Shown in pieces: positions 4,441 to 15,690 of a stretch of 23,271 nt of DNA (positions are counted from its first letter, which is position 1; every line of letters begins with the position of its first letter). The notes below the pieces were generated by a model. It searched no databases and was not told where the DNA came from. It saw only the letters and a program-made list of their open reading frames with translations. The position numbers and the translations under genes were made by a program. Origin of the DNA: a virus (Duplodnaviria > Heunggongvirae > Uroviricota > Caudoviricetes); IMG/VR virus record IMGVR_UViG_2563366867_000008; one strand, written 5' to 3'.

Positions 4441-5345
4441 GCGGCAACACCTCCGATACGAGAACGGTAGCTGGGCCAGTTAAACGACAACCAGTTGCGC
4501 CCGCCATCGGTGATTCTGTCGGCAATCCGGGGACTGATGAACGCCCACAATTCTTCCGGTGAAAGGTTGCTGATCAGGATAGTTGGCAAAATACCCTCAT
4601 ACCGGGCATTGATAATTTCCTGCAAAATGGCCATTTCAGCCGCACTGCCAAACTGAACGCCGACTTCGTCGACAATCAGCAAATCCAGTGACGCATAATG
4701 CTCAATGACGTCATCCGCTGTTTTTTCACTGTCATTCCGCCAGCAGTTTTTCACAGCCCGGGTAAGGCGCATCACGTCGGTGATCTCCACACTGGCCAGA
4801 TAGTTACGGATGATGTGTTTTGCCATTGATACCGCCAGATGATTTTTCCCGGTACCGCAACTGCCGGTCATAACAAGACTGGTACCGTTCTCCAGCATAT
4901 CTGGCCAGTTCTCCGCATAGCGGCGACAGGCCGCAAGATTTCTGGCTGCGTCAGGATTAACCTCCAGATAATTATCAAACTCGCAGTCCCGAAAACGCAG
5001 AGCAATTCCGGCGTTATCAGTCAGTTCTTCCGCCTTGAGGGACGACAGTTCCATGGTCAAATCACTGGCCTCAGCGATCAAGCAGTCAGGGCAGCATGAA
5101 ATTTTTTCTCTGTCCTCGCCATTACGATCGATCCACACCAGTATATGCGTACGATATTTACCGTGTTTTTCGCAATATCCGCGACCTTCACGCATCAGGC
5201 AGGAACGATAAGGCCATGGCTTTTCGCCCTTCTGAGCAAATGCAATCTCTGCCCGTAACTCATCCATTTCTGCCCGTAACTCATCCATTCGCGCCTGTAG
5301 TCTTGTTTGTTTCTCACGTTGGTCAATCGTCATCATCGCTGTCAC
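4437..5345 (-). CDS. DnaC/IstB-like AAA+ helicase loader with Cys-rich N-terminal region
   Basis: 302 aa; Walker A GSCGTGKNH, Walker B LLIVDEVG; contains an in-frame 21-bp tandem duplication (MDELRAE x2). Confidence 0.8.
   Translation of the reverse strand: MTAMMTIDQREKQTRLQARMDELRAEMDELRAEIAFAQKGEKPWPYRSCLMREGRGYCEKHGKYRTHILVWIDRNGEDREKISCCPDCLIAEASDLTMELSSLKAEELTDNAGIALRFRDCEFDNYLEVNPDAARNLAACRRYAENWPDMLENGTSLVMTGSCGTGKNHLAVSMAKHIIRNYLASVEITDVMRLTRAVKNCWRNDSEKTADDVIEHYASLDLLIVDEVGVQFGSAAEMAILQEIINARYEGILPTILISNLSPEELWAFISPRIADRITDGGRNWLSFNWPSYRSRIGGVAA
5247..5288. repeat. Perfect 21-bp tandem duplication (2 copies) inside the DnaC-like gene
   Basis: tctgcccgtaactcatccatt repeated head-to-tail at 5247-5267 and 5268-5288. 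Confidence 0.9.
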
Positions 5346-5346
5346 C

Positions 5347-6273
5347 TCAGAATGTCAATTTGTTACTGGATTTACCGAATTTGTCAGACATGGCTCCCAG
5401 GCCAGCCAGGACATCGACCTGTCGCTGTCGCCCACCTCCGTGAGCGGCTGGCTGTTGCCAGTAATCTTCGAAGTGACGATCGGGTCCAAAGAACGTCGCA
5501 GCCTGCTTCACGAACTGTGTGCCGGTATTTCCTGTAGCACGTACCCAGGCGGCATACCGCTTCACGCCATCAAGCATGGTCTCCGGTTTTATTCCCTCCC
5601 TGATACGGGCTTTCCAGGCTTTGAAGGCTGCTGATTTGGAATTGCCACCAGCACGTTTGGGATATTCCTGCCAGGCCTGTTCAAATTCCGGTGAATATTC
5701 CTGTCTGGCAGAACGCGCTGGTGCAGACGCGTCAGCGGATGCGCCAATATCTTGCGGTTCATGTTTTGAATTTACTGGTGGTTCATGTTTTAAACCTTGT
5801 GGATCTGGAGTCAGATTCTGAAGGGTCAAACGCGTATTTTTGCCAGAATCTGAAGGGTCAAACACGCCTGAACATACAGATTCTGACGGTTCAGATTTTG
5901 AAGGTTCAGAATCTGAAGGGTCACGTAATACTGAAAGTCTGCGCTGCTGTTTCAGTTCTGCAACCTTATCCCGCTCAGTTCTGGCAAGCTGCTCAAGCCG
6001 ATCAGCATTCAGATGATAAAGATTGGACGTATTACGGTTACCTTTGCGGCGTGACTGACGCGTCAGCCAGCCATCAGCCTCCAGTTCGGAGATTGCCGTT
6101 CTGACTGTACTTTCTCCCAATCCAAGCTGTCGACATATGGTTTCAACACCCGGGTAGCACACCCCGTCATCATTCGAATAATCAGCCAGGCGCGCCATAA
6201 TCATCAGTTTTGCACCTTTGACGCCATATGCTGCGCATGCATCCCAGACATTACCGAGGATCTTGCTACTCAT
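5347..6273 (-). CDS. Replication initiator, O-like (N-terminal HTH, Pro/Ser/Asp-rich linker)
   Basis: 308 aa; position directly upstream of DnaC/DnaB-like genes; iteron array lies within the linker-coding region. Confidence 0.65.
   Translation of the reverse strand: MSSKILGNVWDACAAYGVKGAKLMIMARLADYSNDDGVCYPGVETICRQLGLGESTVRTAISELEADGWLTRQSRRKGNRNTSNLYHLNADRLEQLARTERDKVAELKQQRRLSVLRDPSDSEPSKSEPSESVCSGVFDPSDSGKNTRLTLQNLTPDPQGLKHEPPVNSKHEPQDIGASADASAPARSARQEYSPEFEQAWQEYPKRAGGNSKSAAFKAWKARIREGIKPETMLDGVKRYAAWVRATGNTGTQFVKQAATFFGPDRHFEDYWQQPAAHGGGRQRQVDVLAGLGAMSDKFGKSSNKLTF
5757..5925. repeat. Iteron array plus AT-rich repeat: putative phage origin of replication inside the O-like gene
   Basis: Five copies of CAGAWTCTGAAGGGTCA-like 17-mers (starts 5812, 5844, 5877, 5892, 5907), flanked by duplicated GGTTCATGTTTT at 5756-5766 and 5781-5791. 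Confidence 0.7.
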
Positions 6274-6494: not shown

Positions 6495-6685
6495 GGACGC
6501 ACCTCCGCCGTAGTTACGTATTTAACCGGGCTACCTTTCATTGAGATGGTTTCACACATCTCTGCCGCTTTCAGTTCCGCTGTTTTTCTGGATTTATAGC
6601 GACGGTGCCAGACAGATACATCCGTGCGAACTGATACATCGTTTCTGTATTCCGTAGTGGAGATGATGATTTCGTAACTAATCAT
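6491..6685 (-). CDS. Hypothetical protein
   Basis: 64-aa ORF translationally coupled on both sides. Confidence 0.4.
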   Translation of the reverse strand: MISYEIIISTTEYRNDVSVRTDVSVWHRRYKSRKTAELKAAEMCETISMKGSPVKYVTTAEVRP

Positions 6686-7245
6686 GGGCGAACCTCCTTG
6701 TCAGAACCATTCAGCCTAGAATCAACAAGTGCAGCGCCAAAAACAGCATCACCAACACGGTCGTACAGTTTGCTAGCCAGCGGAGATTCAACGGCCTTAA
6801 GCATTGGATAAAGCTGGCTTGTCCAGATTTGATGGATTTCACGCAAATGCAGGTATACGCCTCTGGCGTTTCGTGCGACAGCTGACATATCAGACGCATC
6901 GGCACCTGATAAACTCTTCTCCATCAGGTTAAAGGCGTTGATGTATGCCTCTTTGAACCGGGCAGCACGTTTACCCGTGAAACCCATAGCAAGAAATGCA
7001 AAACCGTCTCGTGTGATTTGATAGCAAGGGAGCTTGCGTGTACCGCCGTTCGGTTGATTTACCGAAATCGATGTCTCCGCAAAATTGCGGGCACAAAACT
7101 CTGGAGAACAATCCAAAATGCGAATCTTTTTCAGAACATCGTCATGACGTTTAGAGAAGAAGTCAGCAACAGCCAAAGAAGATGTAACAGCCTGACCATC
7201 AACGATGGCAATTTCAGGTTGAGAGAGGGTTGGGAGAGTAGTCAT
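6682..7245 (-). CDS. Rha-family phage regulatory protein (second copy); start uncertain
   Basis: Rha-like motif IAIVDGQAVTSSLAVADFFSKRHDDVLKKI begins ~10 aa after internal Met at 7245; the longest ORF extends to 7548 but that 100-aa extension covers a hairpin-rich, terminator-like region. Confidence 0.6.
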   Translation of the reverse strand: MTTLPTLSQPEIAIVDGQAVTSSLAVADFFSKRHDDVLKKIRILDCSPEFCARNFAETSISVNQPNGGTRKLPCYQITRDGFAFLAMGFTGKRAARFKEAYINAFNLMEKSLSGADASDMSAVARNARGVYLHLREIHQIWTSQLYPMLKAVESPLASKLYDRVGDAVFGAALVDSRLNGSDKEVRP

Positions 7246-7631
7246 AGTGACAGCCCCGGTAGTCAGTTTTTTAGAAAACTCACCACATGGGACGCCAATC
7301 ACAGAGGTGGTGAGACGTACAGGGTTGGCGTTACCGGAGACTACCGAACCCGGCCCGACCGAAGTCGGCCCTGTACGCCCCACCATAATTTGGGCGTAGC
7401 AATGCTCATGACACGAAAAAACCGCATGAGCGCGGTTATGCTCAGTAATCAATTTCAGGACGCCAATCCCGGCACCCGCTTTATAAGGTGCGGAGACAGT
7501 GTAACGTCCCGAAATTGCAGAATCAATATTTGGTCTTGAAATGATCATATAGCTGCTGATATCTTTAGAACTGTTCTTGGATGTTTCGGAGCCGTTTTAT
7601 GCGAAACAGCTCCCCGTTATTGATGTTGAGT

Positions 7632-7657
7632 GAGCCGGGTTACTCCCGGCTTTTTTT
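7632..7657 (+). terminator. Plus-strand rho-independent terminator (orphan) immediately 3' of the first Rha gene stop
   Basis: Stem GCCGGG-ttact-CCCGGC followed by TTTTTTT on plus strand; on the minus strand the same hairpin is boxB-like (6-bp stem, 5-nt loop). Confidence 0.55.
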
Positions 7658-8364
7658 CACCGCTGCCAACCAATAACCTGAAATAACCCCATTTTCGGGT
7701 GATACCAGCGAGTCCCTCGCGGTTCTGCTTCCTCCATAACCCGATAAAAAGCAGCCATAAACGGTTCCACAGCAACAATTGCGCGACGTGACAACAATCC
7801 GTCCGGCGTCATGAACTCATGGGTGTCTGTAGGAATCTGATAGGCGTTCACCAGATTGCGGCATTTATCATCTGACAAACCGGTTTTTGCTTTCAGTTGG
7901 CGATATCCGGCATAGCCCTCACGAATAGTGCCCTTTTTAATTTGCTCGACTGTTTCAGCAACGTGGCTGACTTTTTCTTCCACCTGAGTGATCCGTTTCT
8001 GCTGACGAACTGCTTCAAGAGCCATCGCGGCAACCATTTCGATTTCGCTCATTGGCTTACGGATCTGTTCTTCCAGTTCGCGCCAGCGATCTACCAGGCG
8101 AGCAGTGAATTCAGGACAGAGCTGTGCGACGACAATGATGCTGTCGCGCTTACCTTGTTCTCCTTCAAACAGGTAATGCTCATATTGAACTTTAAAACCT
8201 AAGTTATTGATTCTTTCGGAAACCTCAATTTGAGGAGACCGGACAACGCCACCTTTGGCTAATGTTTCAATAGTGCGTTTCACATTGTCATGACGTTTAC
8301 CCACCAGCTCTGCAATTTCAACGCTGGTCATGGATGCTTTGCCGTTAAAAATTGCGGTGTTCAT
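7657..8364 (-). CDS. Rha-family phage regulatory protein (antirepressor-like)
   Basis: 235 aa; N-terminal MTSVEIAELVGKRHDNVKRTIETL Rha signature; strong RBS AGGAGA 8 nt upstream. Confidence 0.8.
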   Translation of the reverse strand: MNTAIFNGKASMTSVEIAELVGKRHDNVKRTIETLAKGGVVRSPQIEVSERINNLGFKVQYEHYLFEGEQGKRDSIIVVAQLCPEFTARLVDRWRELEEQIRKPMSEIEMVAAMALEAVRQQKRITQVEEKVSHVAETVEQIKKGTIREGYAGYRQLKAKTGLSDDKCRNLVNAYQIPTDTHEFMTPDGLLSRRAIVAVEPFMAAFYRVMEEAEPRGTRWYHPKMGLFQVIGWQR

Positions 8365-8588
8365 TGTTGGTCTCCTGTGGGCTTGTCATCTTCTGTATTC
8401 GCTAGACTTGGGTGTGTATATGGAATGCTCGTATCCAGATGACAAAGAATGGCAACATCCTCCGGAACACCTCGCGTTTTCCACTTTCCAACACCTTGAC
8501 TGCCACGAGGCCTTCCTTTCTTTGGGAACCTGCGACCAATAGCGGCATTGGTTTTAAATTGAATTTTTAATATTTCATAAAGGGTCAT
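8361..8588 (-). CDS. Hypothetical small basic protein in the cro position (doubtful)
   Basis: 75-aa ORF, ATGA overlap with Rha gene, weak RBS, low-complexity K/R/G/P-rich composition; no HTH recognised. Confidence 0.25.
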   Translation of the reverse strand: MTLYEILKIQFKTNAAIGRRFPKKGRPRGSQGVGKWKTRGVPEDVAILCHLDTSIPYTHPSLANTEDDKPTGDQQ

Positions 8589-8599
8589 TCTTTAGTCTC

Positions 8600-8680
8600 A
8601 CACCAGATACTTTGTTATCCAACGATGTTAACCACAGGAACCCAAAGTATCAAGAAATTCTGTTACTTTAGTATCAACAG
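8600..8680. promoter_or_regulatory. Right operator/divergent promoter region (OR-like)
   Basis: AGTATCAA half-sites at 8646-8653 and 8668-8675, inverted GATACTTTG at 8606-8614; lies between the cI-like start and the minus-strand early operon. Confidence 0.6.
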
Positions 8681-8699
8681 CCATGAGAGGAGAAGAAAA

Positions 8700-9356
8700 A
8701 TGAAGTCTTTAGGTGAACGTCTCATCAACGCACGGCAAAAAGCTGGGTTAACACAAGATGCGTTGGCTAAAAAAGCTGGGGTCACCAGAGTTGCAATCAG
8801 TAAAGCCGAGCAAGGCCTTACAAAAAGTTTCAACGGTGACACCCTTTTTAAAGTTGCAGCTGCACTGCAGTGTTCACCGCAGTGGCTTCAGAACGGAGAT
8901 GAAAAAGATAAGCATTGGGAAAATAATGTTAAGAGCTGCCCACAGAGAGACACAGCATACTCTTACCCTGTAATTAACTGGGTTCAGGCAGGATTATTCG
9001 CAACTTCTGGTGATGACTACAACATGTATGATCAGGATAATTGGAGGCATTCTGTAAAATACGCTGGTGAGAGGGGGTTCTGGCTGGAAGTGCACGGAGA
9101 CTCAATGACTTCGCCCGTAGGAATAACATTTCCTGAAGGAATGTCGATCCTTGTCAACCCAGATAAAGAAGTTTTTTCAGGGTGTTACGTCATCGCCAGA
9201 AAAAAATCTACCAATGAAGCAACATTCAAAAAATATATTTCTGAAATGGGAAAGGCGTTTCTAAAGCCCCTTAATCCACAATATCCAATCATAGAAATGG
9301 ACAATGATTGCGAAATAGTAGGTGTTGTGGTTGATGCCAGGTGGGATATTTTCTAA
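8700..9356 (+). CDS. cI-type repressor (N-terminal HTH-XRE, C-terminal S24 LexA-like autopeptidase)
   Basis: Start at internal ATG with RBS GAGAGGAGAAG; HTH LTQDALAKKAGVTRVAISKAE; GDSM serine and downstream Lys typical of S24. Confidence 0.85.
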   Translation: MKSLGERLINARQKAGLTQDALAKKAGVTRVAISKAEQGLTKSFNGDTLFKVAAALQCSPQWLQNGDEKDKHWENNVKSCPQRDTAYSYPVINWVQAGLFATSGDDYNMYDQDNWRHSVKYAGERGFWLEVHGDSMTSPVGITFPEGMSILVNPDKEVFSGCYVIARKKSTNEATFKKYISEMGKAFLKPLNPQYPIIEMDNDCEIVGVVVDARWDIF

Positions 9357-9379
9357 CCAGACACAAAACACAAAAAGAA

Positions 9380-9456
9380 ACCAAAGTATCAAAAATCACT
9401 TGCCACACCTTGATACCTTAGTTACCATAAAACAAAGTTCGTAACTGAGGTATCAT
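9380..9456. promoter_or_regulatory. Left operator/promoter region (OL/PL-like)
   Basis: AAAGTATCAA (9382-9392) and inverted TTGATACCTT (9410-9419), GGTATCA at 9449-9455, plus GTTAC...GTAAC inverted repeat; same half-site as the OR region. Confidence 0.6.
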
Positions 9457-9459
9457 CTC

Positions 9460-9876
9460 ATGATCAATAAAGCTACAACTCTTGACTGTCTCGAAGAACT
9501 GAAAAACCTCGGCAGCCTCATTACACTAATAGCAAAAGCAACACCTGATGCTACGCTCTCTAGCGATATAGAGTCATGCGCAGGACTGGCATGGGATATG
9601 ACAAATAGCATATCCAGAAAGCTATCGTCAGCAATGCTTTTACAGAACAAAAATTCTGCAATCAACAACCGTCTTCGCACCCAACGCGAAGCCTGCGGCT
9701 TAACAACCGCCGAACTCGCCAGGCTGCTCGATCTCGATGAAGAAATTATCATCCAGTGGGAGAGCGGAGAGTATGAACCAACTATCAGTATGCTTATCCC
9801 ACTGGCAAATATTCTTGGCTGCGATCCGATGTGGCTGTTAACTGGCGAAACGGCAGCAAAGGATATCTGCGCATGA
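9460..9876 (+). CDS. HTH-XRE DNA-binding protein (C-terminal HTH), first gene of the PL-side operon
   Basis: 138 aa; LTTAELARLLDLDEEIIIQWESGEYEPT HTH; occupies the position of N but has no arginine-rich motif. Confidence 0.7.
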   Translation: MINKATTLDCLEELKNLGSLITLIAKATPDATLSSDIESCAGLAWDMTNSISRKLSSAMLLQNKNSAINNRLRTQREACGLTTAELARLLDLDEEIIIQWESGEYEPTISMLIPLANILGCDPMWLLTGETAAKDICA

Positions 9877-12226: not shown

Positions 12227-12415
12227 ATGAACATTTATTTCAGAATAGTTATATCACTGGCAATTATCGCATGTATTTACGGATTGCTCGTCCCGTTTCT
12301 GATATCAATGAAGGATACGGTAGCGGTGATTTCTGGCTTTGCACTGACGTTTCTAACCCCGCCATGTATTTATACCATTTATAAGGGGCTTTCTTTCACT
12401 AAGGATAAAAGATGA
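12227..12415 (+). CDS. Small membrane protein (two predicted TM helices)
   Basis: 62 aa, hydrophobic; RBS AGGAGG; stop overlaps start of SPFH gene (ATGA). Confidence 0.6.
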   Translation: MNIYFRIVISLAIIACIYGLLVPFLISMKDTVAVISGFALTFLTPPCIYTIYKGLSFTKDKR

Positions 12416-13239
12416 AAAAAATTATTTTTTCTTTAGCCATTGTTCTGCCTGCCATTGGCCTTGTCGGTTGTGATCGTGTTGAGCCTGGTAATGTGGGCAT
12501 CAAAGTCAACAAACTTGGCGACGACAAAGGCGTCGGTGAAGTGGTCGGTGTTGGTCGCTACTGGACAGGCTGGAACACTGAAGTTTATATCTTCCCGACC
12601 TTTAAGCAGATGAAGACCTACGATGATCCATTCAGTTTCCAGATGAGCGATGGAACAACCATTGGTTACCACATCGGAGTAGCCTACAAGGTTGATCCAT
12701 CCAAAGTTACCACAGTCTTTCAGACCTACCGCAAAGGCGTGGACGACATTACCGACACCGACCTGCGCCAGAAGATAGCCGACGCACTCAACCGACTGGC
12801 CAGCAAAATGACCACCGACAAATTTATCGACGGCGGCAAGTCTGAGCTGCTGGATGCAGCTCTTAAAGACATTCAGGAAGAAATGACGCCCATCGGTATT
12901 CAGGTAATAAGCCTCTCATATGTGGGTAAGCCGGAGTACCCGCCTACTGTTATCGACAGCATTAATGCCAAAGTCACGGCGAACCAGAAAACTCTGCAAC
13001 GCGAGCAGGAAGTAAAACAGCGCGAAGCGGAAGCCAACATGTTGCGCGCGGAAGCTGCCGGACAGGCTGATGCGATTCGCACAAAAGCCCAGGCTGAAGC
13101 CGATGCTATTCGTTTACGCGGTGAAGCTCTGCGTCAGAACCCCGGTGTTATGGAGCTGGAAGCCATCAATAAATGGAACGGCACGCTGCCGCAATACATG
13201 ACCAGCGGTGCCAATACACCATTTATCCAGGTTAAATAA
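12412..13239 (+). CDS. SPFH/band-7 (prohibitin/stomatin-like) lipoprotein with C-terminal Ala/Glu-rich coiled coil
   Basis: 275 aa; signal peptide with lipobox LVGC; SPFH-like core; RBS AAGGA. Confidence 0.7.
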   Translation: MKKIIFSLAIVLPAIGLVGCDRVEPGNVGIKVNKLGDDKGVGEVVGVGRYWTGWNTEVYIFPTFKQMKTYDDPFSFQMSDGTTIGYHIGVAYKVDPSKVTTVFQTYRKGVDDITDTDLRQKIADALNRLASKMTTDKFIDGGKSELLDAALKDIQEEMTPIGIQVISLSYVGKPEYPPTVIDSINAKVTANQKTLQREQEVKQREAEANMLRAEAAGQADAIRTKAQAEADAIRLRGEALRQNPGVMELEAINKWNGTLPQYMTSGANTPFIQVK

Positions 13240-14376: not shown

Positions 14377-15690
14377 ATGGATAAAGTCAAATATCCAACA
14401 GGCGTCGAAAACCACGGCGGCACATTACGCATCTGGTTTAATTTTAAAGGTAAACGTGTCAGGGAAAATCTTGGTGTCCCTGACACTGCCAAGAACAGGA
14501 AGATCGCCGGGGAACTGCGGACATCAGTATGTTTTGCCATCCGCACAGGAAGCTTTGATTATGCTGCACAGTTCCCTGACTCCCCCAACCTTCAGGCTTT
14601 TGGGGTAAGTAAAAAAGAAATTACGGTGAAGGAACTTGAAGAAAAGTGGCTGGATCTGAAACGAATGGAAATCTCTGCAAATGCATTCAATCGCTATGAA
14701 TCCGTTGCAAGAACGATGGTTCCGAAAATTGGAGGCAGTAAACTGGTGTCATCGGTAACCAAAGAGGAATTGCTGTATATCAGGAAAGATTTGCTGACCG
14801 GGTATCAGAATTCAACGAAAAACAAAGCAGCAGCAAAAGGACGGAGCGTCGTTACTGTAAATTATTACATGACGACAATCGCTGGAATGTTTCAGTTTGC
14901 TGCAGATCACGGTTACTTAGAAGCAAATCCCTTCCAGGGAATTAAGCCTCTTAAAAGAGCCAGGGCAGAGCCAGATCCGCTAACTCGTGACGAATTTATT
15001 CGCCTGATAGATGCTTGCCGACATCAGCAGACGAAAAACCTGTGGTCATTGGCTGTGTACACAGGAATGCGTCACGGTGAACTGGTCTCCCTGGCCTGGG
15101 AAGATATCGATCTGAAGGCAGGAACAATTACCATCAGGCGCAATTATACGAAACTTGGTGAGTTCACTCTACCGAAAACTGAAGCAAGCACAAACAGGGT
15201 TGTGCACCTTATCCAGCCCGCTATCAGTGTCCTGAAAAATCAGGCTGAAATGACAAGACTGGGTAAGCAGTACAACATCAAGGTGCAACTACGTGAATAT
15301 GGACGTTCAGTGAACCATGAATGTACTTTCGTGTTTAACCCTCAAGTGGTTAGAAAAAGCGAACAGGTAGGTTTTGTCTACAAAGTCGATTCTGTAGGTG
15401 ACTCATGGGAAACAGCCATTAAGCGTGCAGGGATCAGGCATCGAAAGGCATACCAGTCACGACACACTTATGCGTGCTGGTCATTATCTGCCGGAGCAAA
15501 CCCAAGCTTCATTGCCAGCCAGATGGGCCATGCAAGTGCCCAGATGGTATTCAATGTATACGGAGCATGGATGACTGACAGCAATGCAGAACAGATCGCA
15601 ATGCTGAATCAGAAGCTGACAGATTATGTCCCAATGATGCCCCATAGTCACCAAAGTGACACCAGAGGCTTATTAAAATCAGTAAGTTAA
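14377..15690 (+). CDS. Tyrosine integrase (lambda Int family)
   Basis: 437 aa; RBS GGAGG; C-terminal catalytic region with R...HxxR...Y-type residues (RHTYACWSLSAGANPSFIASQMGHASAQMVFNVY); abuts disrupted host gene. Confidence 0.85.
   Translation: MDKVKYPTGVENHGGTLRIWFNFKGKRVRENLGVPDTAKNRKIAGELRTSVCFAIRTGSFDYAAQFPDSPNLQAFGVSKKEITVKELEEKWLDLKRMEISANAFNRYESVARTMVPKIGGSKLVSSVTKEELLYIRKDLLTGYQNSTKNKAAAKGRSVVTVNYYMTTIAGMFQFAADHGYLEANPFQGIKPLKRARAEPDPLTRDEFIRLIDACRHQQTKNLWSLAVYTGMRHGELVSLAWEDIDLKAGTITIRRNYTKLGEFTLPKTEASTNRVVHLIQPAISVLKNQAEMTRLGKQYNIKVQLREYGRSVNHECTFVFNPQVVRKSEQVGFVYKVDSVGDSWETAIKRAGIRHRKAYQSRHTYACWSLSAGANPSFIASQMGHASAQMVFNVYGAWMTDSNAEQIAMLNQKLTDYVPMMPHSHQSDTRGLLKSVS

Follow-up and report, generated by a model that had tools for sequence, protein, structure and literature searches.

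We analysed the immunity region of a 23,271-nucleotide (nt) stretch of viral DNA (Caudoviricetes; IMG/VR record IMGVR_UViG_2563366867_000008), hereafter the window, which is a phiP27-like lambdoid prophage of Escherichia coli. Its cI-type repressor gene lies opposite a small open reading frame (ORF) of 75 amino acids (aa), and this ORF very probably encodes the Cro of a standard lambda-type immunity switch, a diverged member of the helical P22 Cro lineage. The region is an ordinary lambdoid immunity region with a Cro that current family models do not recognise. A preliminary description, made from the letters alone, had taken the ORF to be doubtful and of low complexity and a Rha-family gene to be the first clear gene opposite cI, and had concluded that the switch partner is either highly divergent or not a canonical Cro. 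The features of the switch, including those with a helix-turn-helix (HTH), are as follows.

8361-8588, minus strand: cro-like gene, 75 aa, first gene of the rightward (PR-like) operon; "hypothetical protein" WP_001538848.1 in PGAP
8606-8619: putative operator nearest cro (OR1-like), GATACTTTGTTATC, with one mismatch to GATAC-N4-GTATC; covers the predicted PR start
8638-8651: putative middle operator (OR2-like), GAACCCAAAGTATC; overlaps the PR -35 hexamer
8662-8675: putative operator nearest cI (OR3-like), GTTACTTTAGTATC; holds the candidate PRM -10, TAGTAT, at 8669-8674
8625-8653, minus strand: PR-like sigma-70 promoter, TTGATA (8653-8648), 17-nt spacer, TAACAT (8630-8625), from a promoter scan
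8700-9356, plus strand: cI-type repressor, 218 aa; HTH_3 E 8.5e-15, Peptidase_S24 E 4e-22 (Pfam)
9377-9390, 9412-9425 and 9441-9454: second putative operator trio (OL-like), just downstream of cI, from a pattern search
9400-9428, plus strand: PL-like promoter, TTGCCA-17-TACCAT, within the second trio and ahead of the gene for a 138-aa HTH protein, from a promoter scan
9460-9876: 138-aa HTH_3 protein, first PL-side gene; PHROG "CII-like regulator"
7657-8364, minus strand: Rha-family gene (Roi/Ant-like), 235 aa; Phage_pRha (PF09669) 40.2 bits against a curated cut-off of 29.9, phrog_63 E 1.5e-48

The 75-aa ORF is a conserved gene

The 75-aa ORF matched phrog_4749 from end to end (E 4e-48), a family that PHROGs labels "unknown function". 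Its 42 homologues, at 60-93% identity and with 23 invariant columns in the alignment, came from across the Enterobacterales: Klebsiella/Raoultella, Yersinia, Citrobacter, Salmonella, Kosakonia, Photorhabdus, Xenorhabdus and Providencia. The ratio of nonsynonymous to synonymous substitution (dN/dS) was 0.06 against phiP27 and 0.13 against a Shiga toxin (Stx) 2a phage (Nei-Gojobori, first 60 codons), and was about 0.08-0.13 in those distant pairs for which dS could be estimated, synonymous sites being saturated in distant pairs. In all 12 loci compared, the 75-aa frame was the only one of the six free of stops. The basic stretch RRFPKKGRPRGSQGVGKWK, which had seemed to be of low complexity, is the best-conserved part of the protein. 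The ORF once held to be doubtful is a real gene.

The interval 8365-8600 does hold this ORF together with a 48-aa ORF in an alternative frame (8402-8548, minus strand), as had been described. All four small ORFs in 8330-8588 were searched against Pfam, two of them against PHROGs, and the 75-aa ORF also against NCBIfam. The 48-aa ORF and two plus-strand ORFs of 70 and 52 aa were rejected as genes, having no family matches and frames with stops in the relatives. For the 75-aa ORF, Pfam gave no HTH or Cro call (best E 0.16) and NCBIfam nothing useful. None of 37 family members matched P22_Cro (PF14549) or YdaS (PF15943) directly in a Pfam scan with E values up to 10, and the family profile found only a chance match to Nup358 among PDB sequences.

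Homology to P22 Cro and predicted fold

Distant Cro orthologues are normally linked by conserved gene position, transitive similarity and structure (Hall, Roberts and Cordes 2019, PMC6649833). A search of 1.84 billion representative proteins with the family profile returned 16 proteins. The more distant matches (P0047-P0056; E 1.5e-11 to 4e-4) extend the homology down to about 30% identity and share with the family the motifs LY..L...F.T...I, W-K, G-V-P-E and LCHL..IPY. Pfam P22_Cro was the best family for six of these ten relatives, and one of them, P0052, exceeded its curated cut-off (31.2 versus 30.2 bits, E 1.9e-7). These ten relatives lack a short insertion present in the 75-aa protein. 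A profile built from them matched the P22 Cro structure (PDB 1rzs) with an E value of 3.6e-5, the Cro proteins of XPH1 and Xfaso 1 coming next among Cro proteins. When the family alignment was compared with the insert-less alignment by hhalign, the two agreed with 99.7% probability (E 4.7e-26) and a single 5-column gap, located in a turn. The 75-aa protein is by this route a transitive homologue of established Cro proteins.

The confident AlphaFold2 (AF2) model describes a small single-domain protein with the helical repressor (lambda-repressor-like) fold, and Cro proteins specifically were the best structural and sequence matches. The earlier statement that neither small ORF is HTH-like stands insofar as standard libraries give no HTH or Cro call, but the 75-aa ORF is HTH-like by predicted structure, so that a Cro/HTH fold is predicted among the small ORFs of this interval. 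The profile searches proposed at that time were divided in outcome: the direct ones made no Cro or HTH call, and the transitive ones led to P22 Cro.

The 75-aa protein differs in several respects from the helical Cro branch (P22 Cro, 1rzs; N15 Cro, 2hin; Xfaso 1 Cro, 3bd1; PF14549). It adds a 5-residue basic insertion where P22 Cro and the insert-less relatives have a 3-residue turn, its operator half-site GAWAC is unlike those of the other phages, and it has no direct Pfam match. Its model also lacks a long C-terminal helix 5 and has instead a conserved coil, D-x-x-I-P-Y-x-H. Lambda Cro has an alpha+beta fold, whereas the 75-aa protein is predicted to be all-helical, like P22 Cro and N15 Cro.

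The C-terminal tail of the Cro-like protein is unstructured in the model, with a predicted local distance difference test (pLDDT) score below 50. Six of the ten insert-less relatives (P0048-P0052 and P0055) have long C-terminal tails ending in -AA (…QRAA, …SEAA, …QEAA), and in several of these a VTTND stretch is conserved ahead of the end. P22 Cro likewise ends in -RQAA. The -AA tail of the insert-less relatives could be a protease recognition tail; the 75-aa protein of the window does not have one.

Repressor and gene position

The cI ORF spans 8625-9356, and by comparison with phiP27 L11 and all relatives its start is most likely at 8700, which gives 218 aa, the length of L11. The identification of a cI-like repressor opposite the small ORFs was borne out, with an N-terminal HTH (HTH_3) and a C-terminal Peptidase_S24 domain that has an Ala-Gly site and a Ser/Lys dyad. 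The translation carries the motifs VQAGLF (VQ-AG-LF), GDSM and FKK, of which we take the first to be the cleavage site and the serine of GDSM and the lysine of FKK to be the catalytic dyad, on the pattern of lambda cI and LexA. Because of these autocleavage motifs, RecA-dependent induction is expected without any antirepressor.

The 75-aa ORF occupies the cro position, as the first rightward gene, divergent from cI and with the OR-like region between them. In 10 of 10 loci from other genera, its homologue diverges from a cI-like repressor of 218-246 aa across about 100-130 bp, and the genes that follow the homologue there encode replication proteins, helicases and others, not Rha. The same cI pairing was seen in 35 of 44 viral contigs with relatives.

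Operators and promoters

The cI-cro control region is 111 bp long and contains three 14-bp pseudo-palindromic putative operators (GAWAC-N4-GTWWC). In an alignment of 12 such spacers from about nine genera, conservation was almost confined to the three operator sites and the promoter hexamers, and the start-to-start spacings of 32 and 24 bp were fixed across relatives. The PR -35 sequence TTGATAC, which sits inside the middle operator, was invariant or nearly so. A consensus promoter scan found no PRM; TAGTAT at 8669-8674 is a candidate for its -10 hexamer.

Allowing up to two mismatches, the pattern GATAC-N4-GTATC occurred 15 times in the window against 6.5 expected, a count reached in none of 100 shuffles. 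Six of the 15 matches make up the two clusters that flank cI. The three conserved sites overlapping PR are predicted to be shared by cI and Cro, and the type of operator co-varies with the insertion described below.

The arrangement is like that of lambda in its autocleavable S24 repressor, its divergent PR and probable PRM, its three putative operators between cI and cro and its three beyond cI. In contrast to lambda, no N-like or CII orthologue has been reported for the P27 type (PMC3430580), and the first PL-side gene encodes the 138-aa HTH protein. This gene occupies the slot of lambda N.

A basic insertion in the HTH turn

This Cro-like protein is unusual in one respect only, its insertion.

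8505-8519, minus strand: 5-residue insertion K-G-R-P-R, codons 24-28; a clean 5-column gap in the insert-less relatives, both in the alignment and by hhalign

The entire loop comprises residues 21-29 (FPKKGRPRG), of which P22, G25 and R28 are invariant. DSSP assigned helices to residues 14-20 and 30-39 of the model, with the loop at 21-29 between them, compared with helices at 16-23 and 27-34 separated by a 3-residue turn in the relative P0052. A canonical 20-residue HTH with a turn of 3-4 residues is not what the 75-aa protein has, its helices being separated by a 9-residue loop. The family hidden Markov models fail because of this turn insertion.

Among the viral loci, the insertion was found only together with the cI HTH sequence AGV[ST]RVAISKAE and GAYAC-N4-GTWAC operators, whereas the insert-less relatives were paired with other cI types and other operator sequences. 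In a sister clade with a canonical-HTH Cro (loci L015-L034), many partner cI proteins carry extra residues in their own HTH turn, for example LAQKVAKRIPEMKFSRVSLSNVELG; repressors with such an expanded turn include those of L015, L016, L020, L023, L025, L027, L031 and L032. It appears that one clade has the HTH turn expanded in cI and the other has it expanded in Cro. Since the cI of the sister clade carries an HTH-turn insertion, turn expansion may be a recurrent route to new immunity specificities.

We tentatively suggest that the invariant basic insertion (F-P-x-[KR]-G-x-x-R, residues 21-28) is a new DNA-recognition element in the Cro lineage, although the odds are rather against it. It would act as an extra arm to the backbone or minor groove that arose with the GAYAC-N4-GTWAC operator class, and it could help Cro and cI to rank their shared operators differently. 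The POU-specific domain is another lambda-repressor-like fold with a lengthened HTH turn. It is eukaryotic, has no detectable sequence relationship to the 75-aa protein and gave no significant matches, and the likeness is one of structural analogy only.

Proposed operation of the switch

We infer DNA binding, operator preference and regulatory outcome for the 75-aa protein as follows. An SOS-cleavable cI and the Cro-like gene would be transcribed divergently from the 111-bp control region. The two cro-side operators overlap the predicted PR, the cI-side operator overlaps the probable PRM, and the second trio would guard the PL-like promoter. After cleavage of cI, PR would yield the Cro-like protein as its first product. 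This protein would next occupy the same operators, presumably as a dimer as expected of a Cro, starting with the cI-proximal one and switching off cI synthesis. Later it would damp PR and PL, leading to lytic commitment. The Rha gene comes next in the operon, and the ATGA overlap would couple its translation to that of the Cro-like gene.

Alternative explanations

The 75-aa protein might instead be an HTH protein of the Cro superfamily with another job, such as a CII-like activator, an excisionase/Apl-like dual regulator, an Aca-type autorepressor or a YdaS-like regulator, Cro function being absent or residing elsewhere, for example in the 138-aa HTH protein at 9460-9876. We consider this improbable, even though it is the strongest of the alternatives. 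The best structure and sequence matches are to Cro proteins specifically, and the gene always comes first beside the cI-proximal operators, which is the slot of cro and not that of cII or xis. It also co-varies with the cI and operator type, and a near-identical prophage has another gene, near int, that is annotated as the excisionase.

It is still less probable that the region has no Cro and that one or both Rha-family proteins opposite cI act as the lytic-side regulator, whether as antirepressor or as regulator. Two Rha-family ORFs do follow the 75-aa gene, PHROGs labels them as anti-repressor or transcriptional regulator, and the second sits in an isrK/C4-type antirepressor module. However, the operators are separated from Rha by a conserved Cro homologue, and relatives that share the cI/operator/cro module have a gene other than Rha downstream of it. 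The autocleavage motifs of cI, moreover, make an antirepressor unnecessary for induction.

Escherichia phage PhiR49_2, moreover, has the same Rha gene (Rha/Roi, 98% identical) behind a Cro gene that is unrelated but recognisable. The product of that cro gene is annotated as Cro, is 96 aa long and matches Pfam YdaS_toxin (47.7 bits) and P22_Cro, and the two genes again overlap by 4 nt. DNA homology between the window and PhiR49_2 ends at about 8377, and BLASTP of the 75-aa protein against the PhiR49_2 Cro showed similarity only in the last residues, where the Rha ribosome-binding site lies. That different cro genes precede the same Rha gene indicates that the cI-operator-cro block is swapped as a cassette, with the 75-aa gene in the cro position. 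The mosaic junction of this immunity cassette (about 8377 in the window; L003 3446-3462 in PhiR49_2) falls within the last cro codons, which read …GDQQ* here and …GDKQ* in PhiR49_2. The unstructured Cro tail seems to be shaped by the translation signal of the downstream gene.

The ORF has a weak ribosome-binding site in the window and no family name in the libraries searched, but that it should be untranslated, with its conservation due to a leader RNA or DNA-level signals, is highly improbable given its low dN/dS with saturated synonymous sites, a frame open at 12 of 12 loci where all others are interrupted, a confident AF2 model, protein-level homologues down to about 30% identity and no Rfam family match within 8361-8588.

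A Cro of the P22 type remains the best explanation of the 75-aa gene. The expectation of a highly divergent switch partner was sound, and that of a switch with no Cro was not.

Rha genes and the isrK/C4 module

The strong ribosome-binding site reported for the 235-aa Rha gene was confirmed as AGGAG, seven nt before the ATG and within the last cro codons; the ATG overlaps the cro stop (ATGA). PGAP names the product "Rha family transcriptional regulator", and its score against NCBIfam TIGR02681 was below the cut-off (19.8 versus 45.95). The 235-aa gene comes second in the PR operon, coupled by the ATGA, and is not the switch partner; the first gene opposite cI is the 75-aa gene. Most relatives of the immunity module lack this Rha gene, which is therefore not part of the conserved switch. 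A second Rha gene does follow, as had been noted, and it contains an RNA module.

6682-7548, minus strand: second "Rha" ORF, 288 aa; Phage_pRha 92.7 bits
7526-7498, minus strand: putative isrK promoter, TTGATT-17-TACACT, inside the first 17 codons of the second Rha ORF; read from the sequence
7491-7415, minus strand: isrK-like small RNA (sRNA), Rfam 59.3 versus 50 bits, with a terminator (hairpin and U-run) at 7437-7415
7390-7303, minus strand: C4-like antisense RNA, Rfam 82.3 versus 45 bits

At 7303-7491, both Rfam models score above their gathering thresholds, on the same strand and upstream of the antirepressor-like gene, constituting an isrK/C4 module. A weak c4-a1b1 target match was seen at 7504-7452. 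The Rha domain of the second ORF begins after M102 (ATG 7245), and this ORF is probably over-extended, with the antirepressor-like gene starting at M102. The Pfam Phage_ASH match in its N-terminal third may in part be a translated RNA gene.

The Gifsy-1 isrK-orf45-anrP locus is an antirepressor locus (PMC4825925). It and the c4-icd-ant (immI) locus of P1/P7 share with the second Rha ORF the same-strand order of isrK-like sRNA, C4-like RNA and antirepressor-like Rha-domain gene. In contrast to both, the module here is part of the PR operon and comes immediately behind the first Rha gene. Unlike in Gifsy-1, the stretch equivalent to orf45 is in frame with the Rha domain, so that gene callers give one long "Ash+Rha" protein.

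On the minus strand, the spacer between the two Rha genes forms two hairpins (z = -4.1). They were rejected as a terminator of the PR transcript, since there is no U-tract on that strand and the T-run is only on the plus strand. The only Rfam match in this spacer, sroD-like and below threshold (24.5 versus 50 bits), was taken as a terminator look-alike. The plus strand carries an intrinsic terminator that overlaps the first Rha stop codon, with a stem at 7632-7652 and seven T after it. About 70 nt upstream of it, on the same strand, there is a promoter-like site (7536-7565; TTGAAA-18-TATCTT with TG), and the pair could give rise to a short antisense RNA against the PR transcript, in a position like that of lambda OOP.

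The prophage and its relatives

Over 7400-9400, the window was 93.6% identical to the Stx2e phage phiP27 and 84-86% identical to several Stx1a- and Stx2a-converting phages. DNA matching 8300-8760 was present in 238 of 5,426 complete E. coli genomes. In one of these, which is 100% identical over that interval, the prophage adjoins a DUF72 gene, yecN and cmoA, and the PGAP order is LexA family protein, hypothetical protein (228 nt), Rha family regulator, ash family protein, replication genes and Q antiterminator. The flanking genes of this close relative correspond to the yecE-type integration site of Stx phages, and the same prophage carries a ParE-like toxin gene. In the near-identical prophage, the excisionase is annotated separately, near int.

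Elsewhere in the window, an integrase (Arm-DNA-bind_2 and Phage_integrase) at 14377-15690 marks the prophage end, and an SPFH/Band_7 gene at 12412-13239 is part of the leftward operon. The window also carries tRNA genes.

362-876 region, minus strand: tRNA genes Arg-tct (627-703), Arg-tcg (717-793) and Met-cat (801-876)

An STnc100 sRNA match (362-551, 133.6 bits) lies beside this trio, which resembles the tRNA clusters of the Q/late-gene region in Stx-type phages.

The orthologue of the 75-aa protein in phiP27 is L12, of the same 75-aa length and in the 93.6% identical immunity region. In phiP27, a 785-bp insertion (4665-5449) separates L12 from the Rha-like L14, whereas the window has no insertion and the two genes overlap by ATGA. 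The phiP27 insertion holds an opposite-strand ORF of 223 aa, L13, which has no Pfam match.

A multilocus typing scheme for Stx phages lists "P27, Cro12" (Smith et al. 2012, PMC3430580), and translation of its degenerate cro12 primers gives MTLYEI and, from the reverse strand, GKQSEV, the N and C termini of phiP27 L12. The phiP27 orthologue was already labelled cro in 2012, apparently by position. The typing paper gives no structural, homology or operator evidence for the label, which is absent from GenBank, RefSeq and PGAP records, where the protein is still "hypothetical". The same paper states that N, CII and other key lambdoid elements could not be identified in P27.

Significance

The main value of the finding is one of annotation, as the family is "hypothetical" in PGAP and the GenBank records examined and of "unknown function" in PHROGs. 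Its members are found in Stx-converting phages, both phiP27-type and yecE-integrated, as well as in prophages from at least nine further enterobacterial genera. The name Cro would complete the switch of Stx-related phages, whose induction controls toxin release, and would set right the view that "key lambdoid regulatory elements cannot be identified" in genomes of the P27 type (PMC3430580). The switch itself is not of a new kind; to the study of Cro evolution the family adds a helical member whose expanded HTH turn co-varies with the operators.

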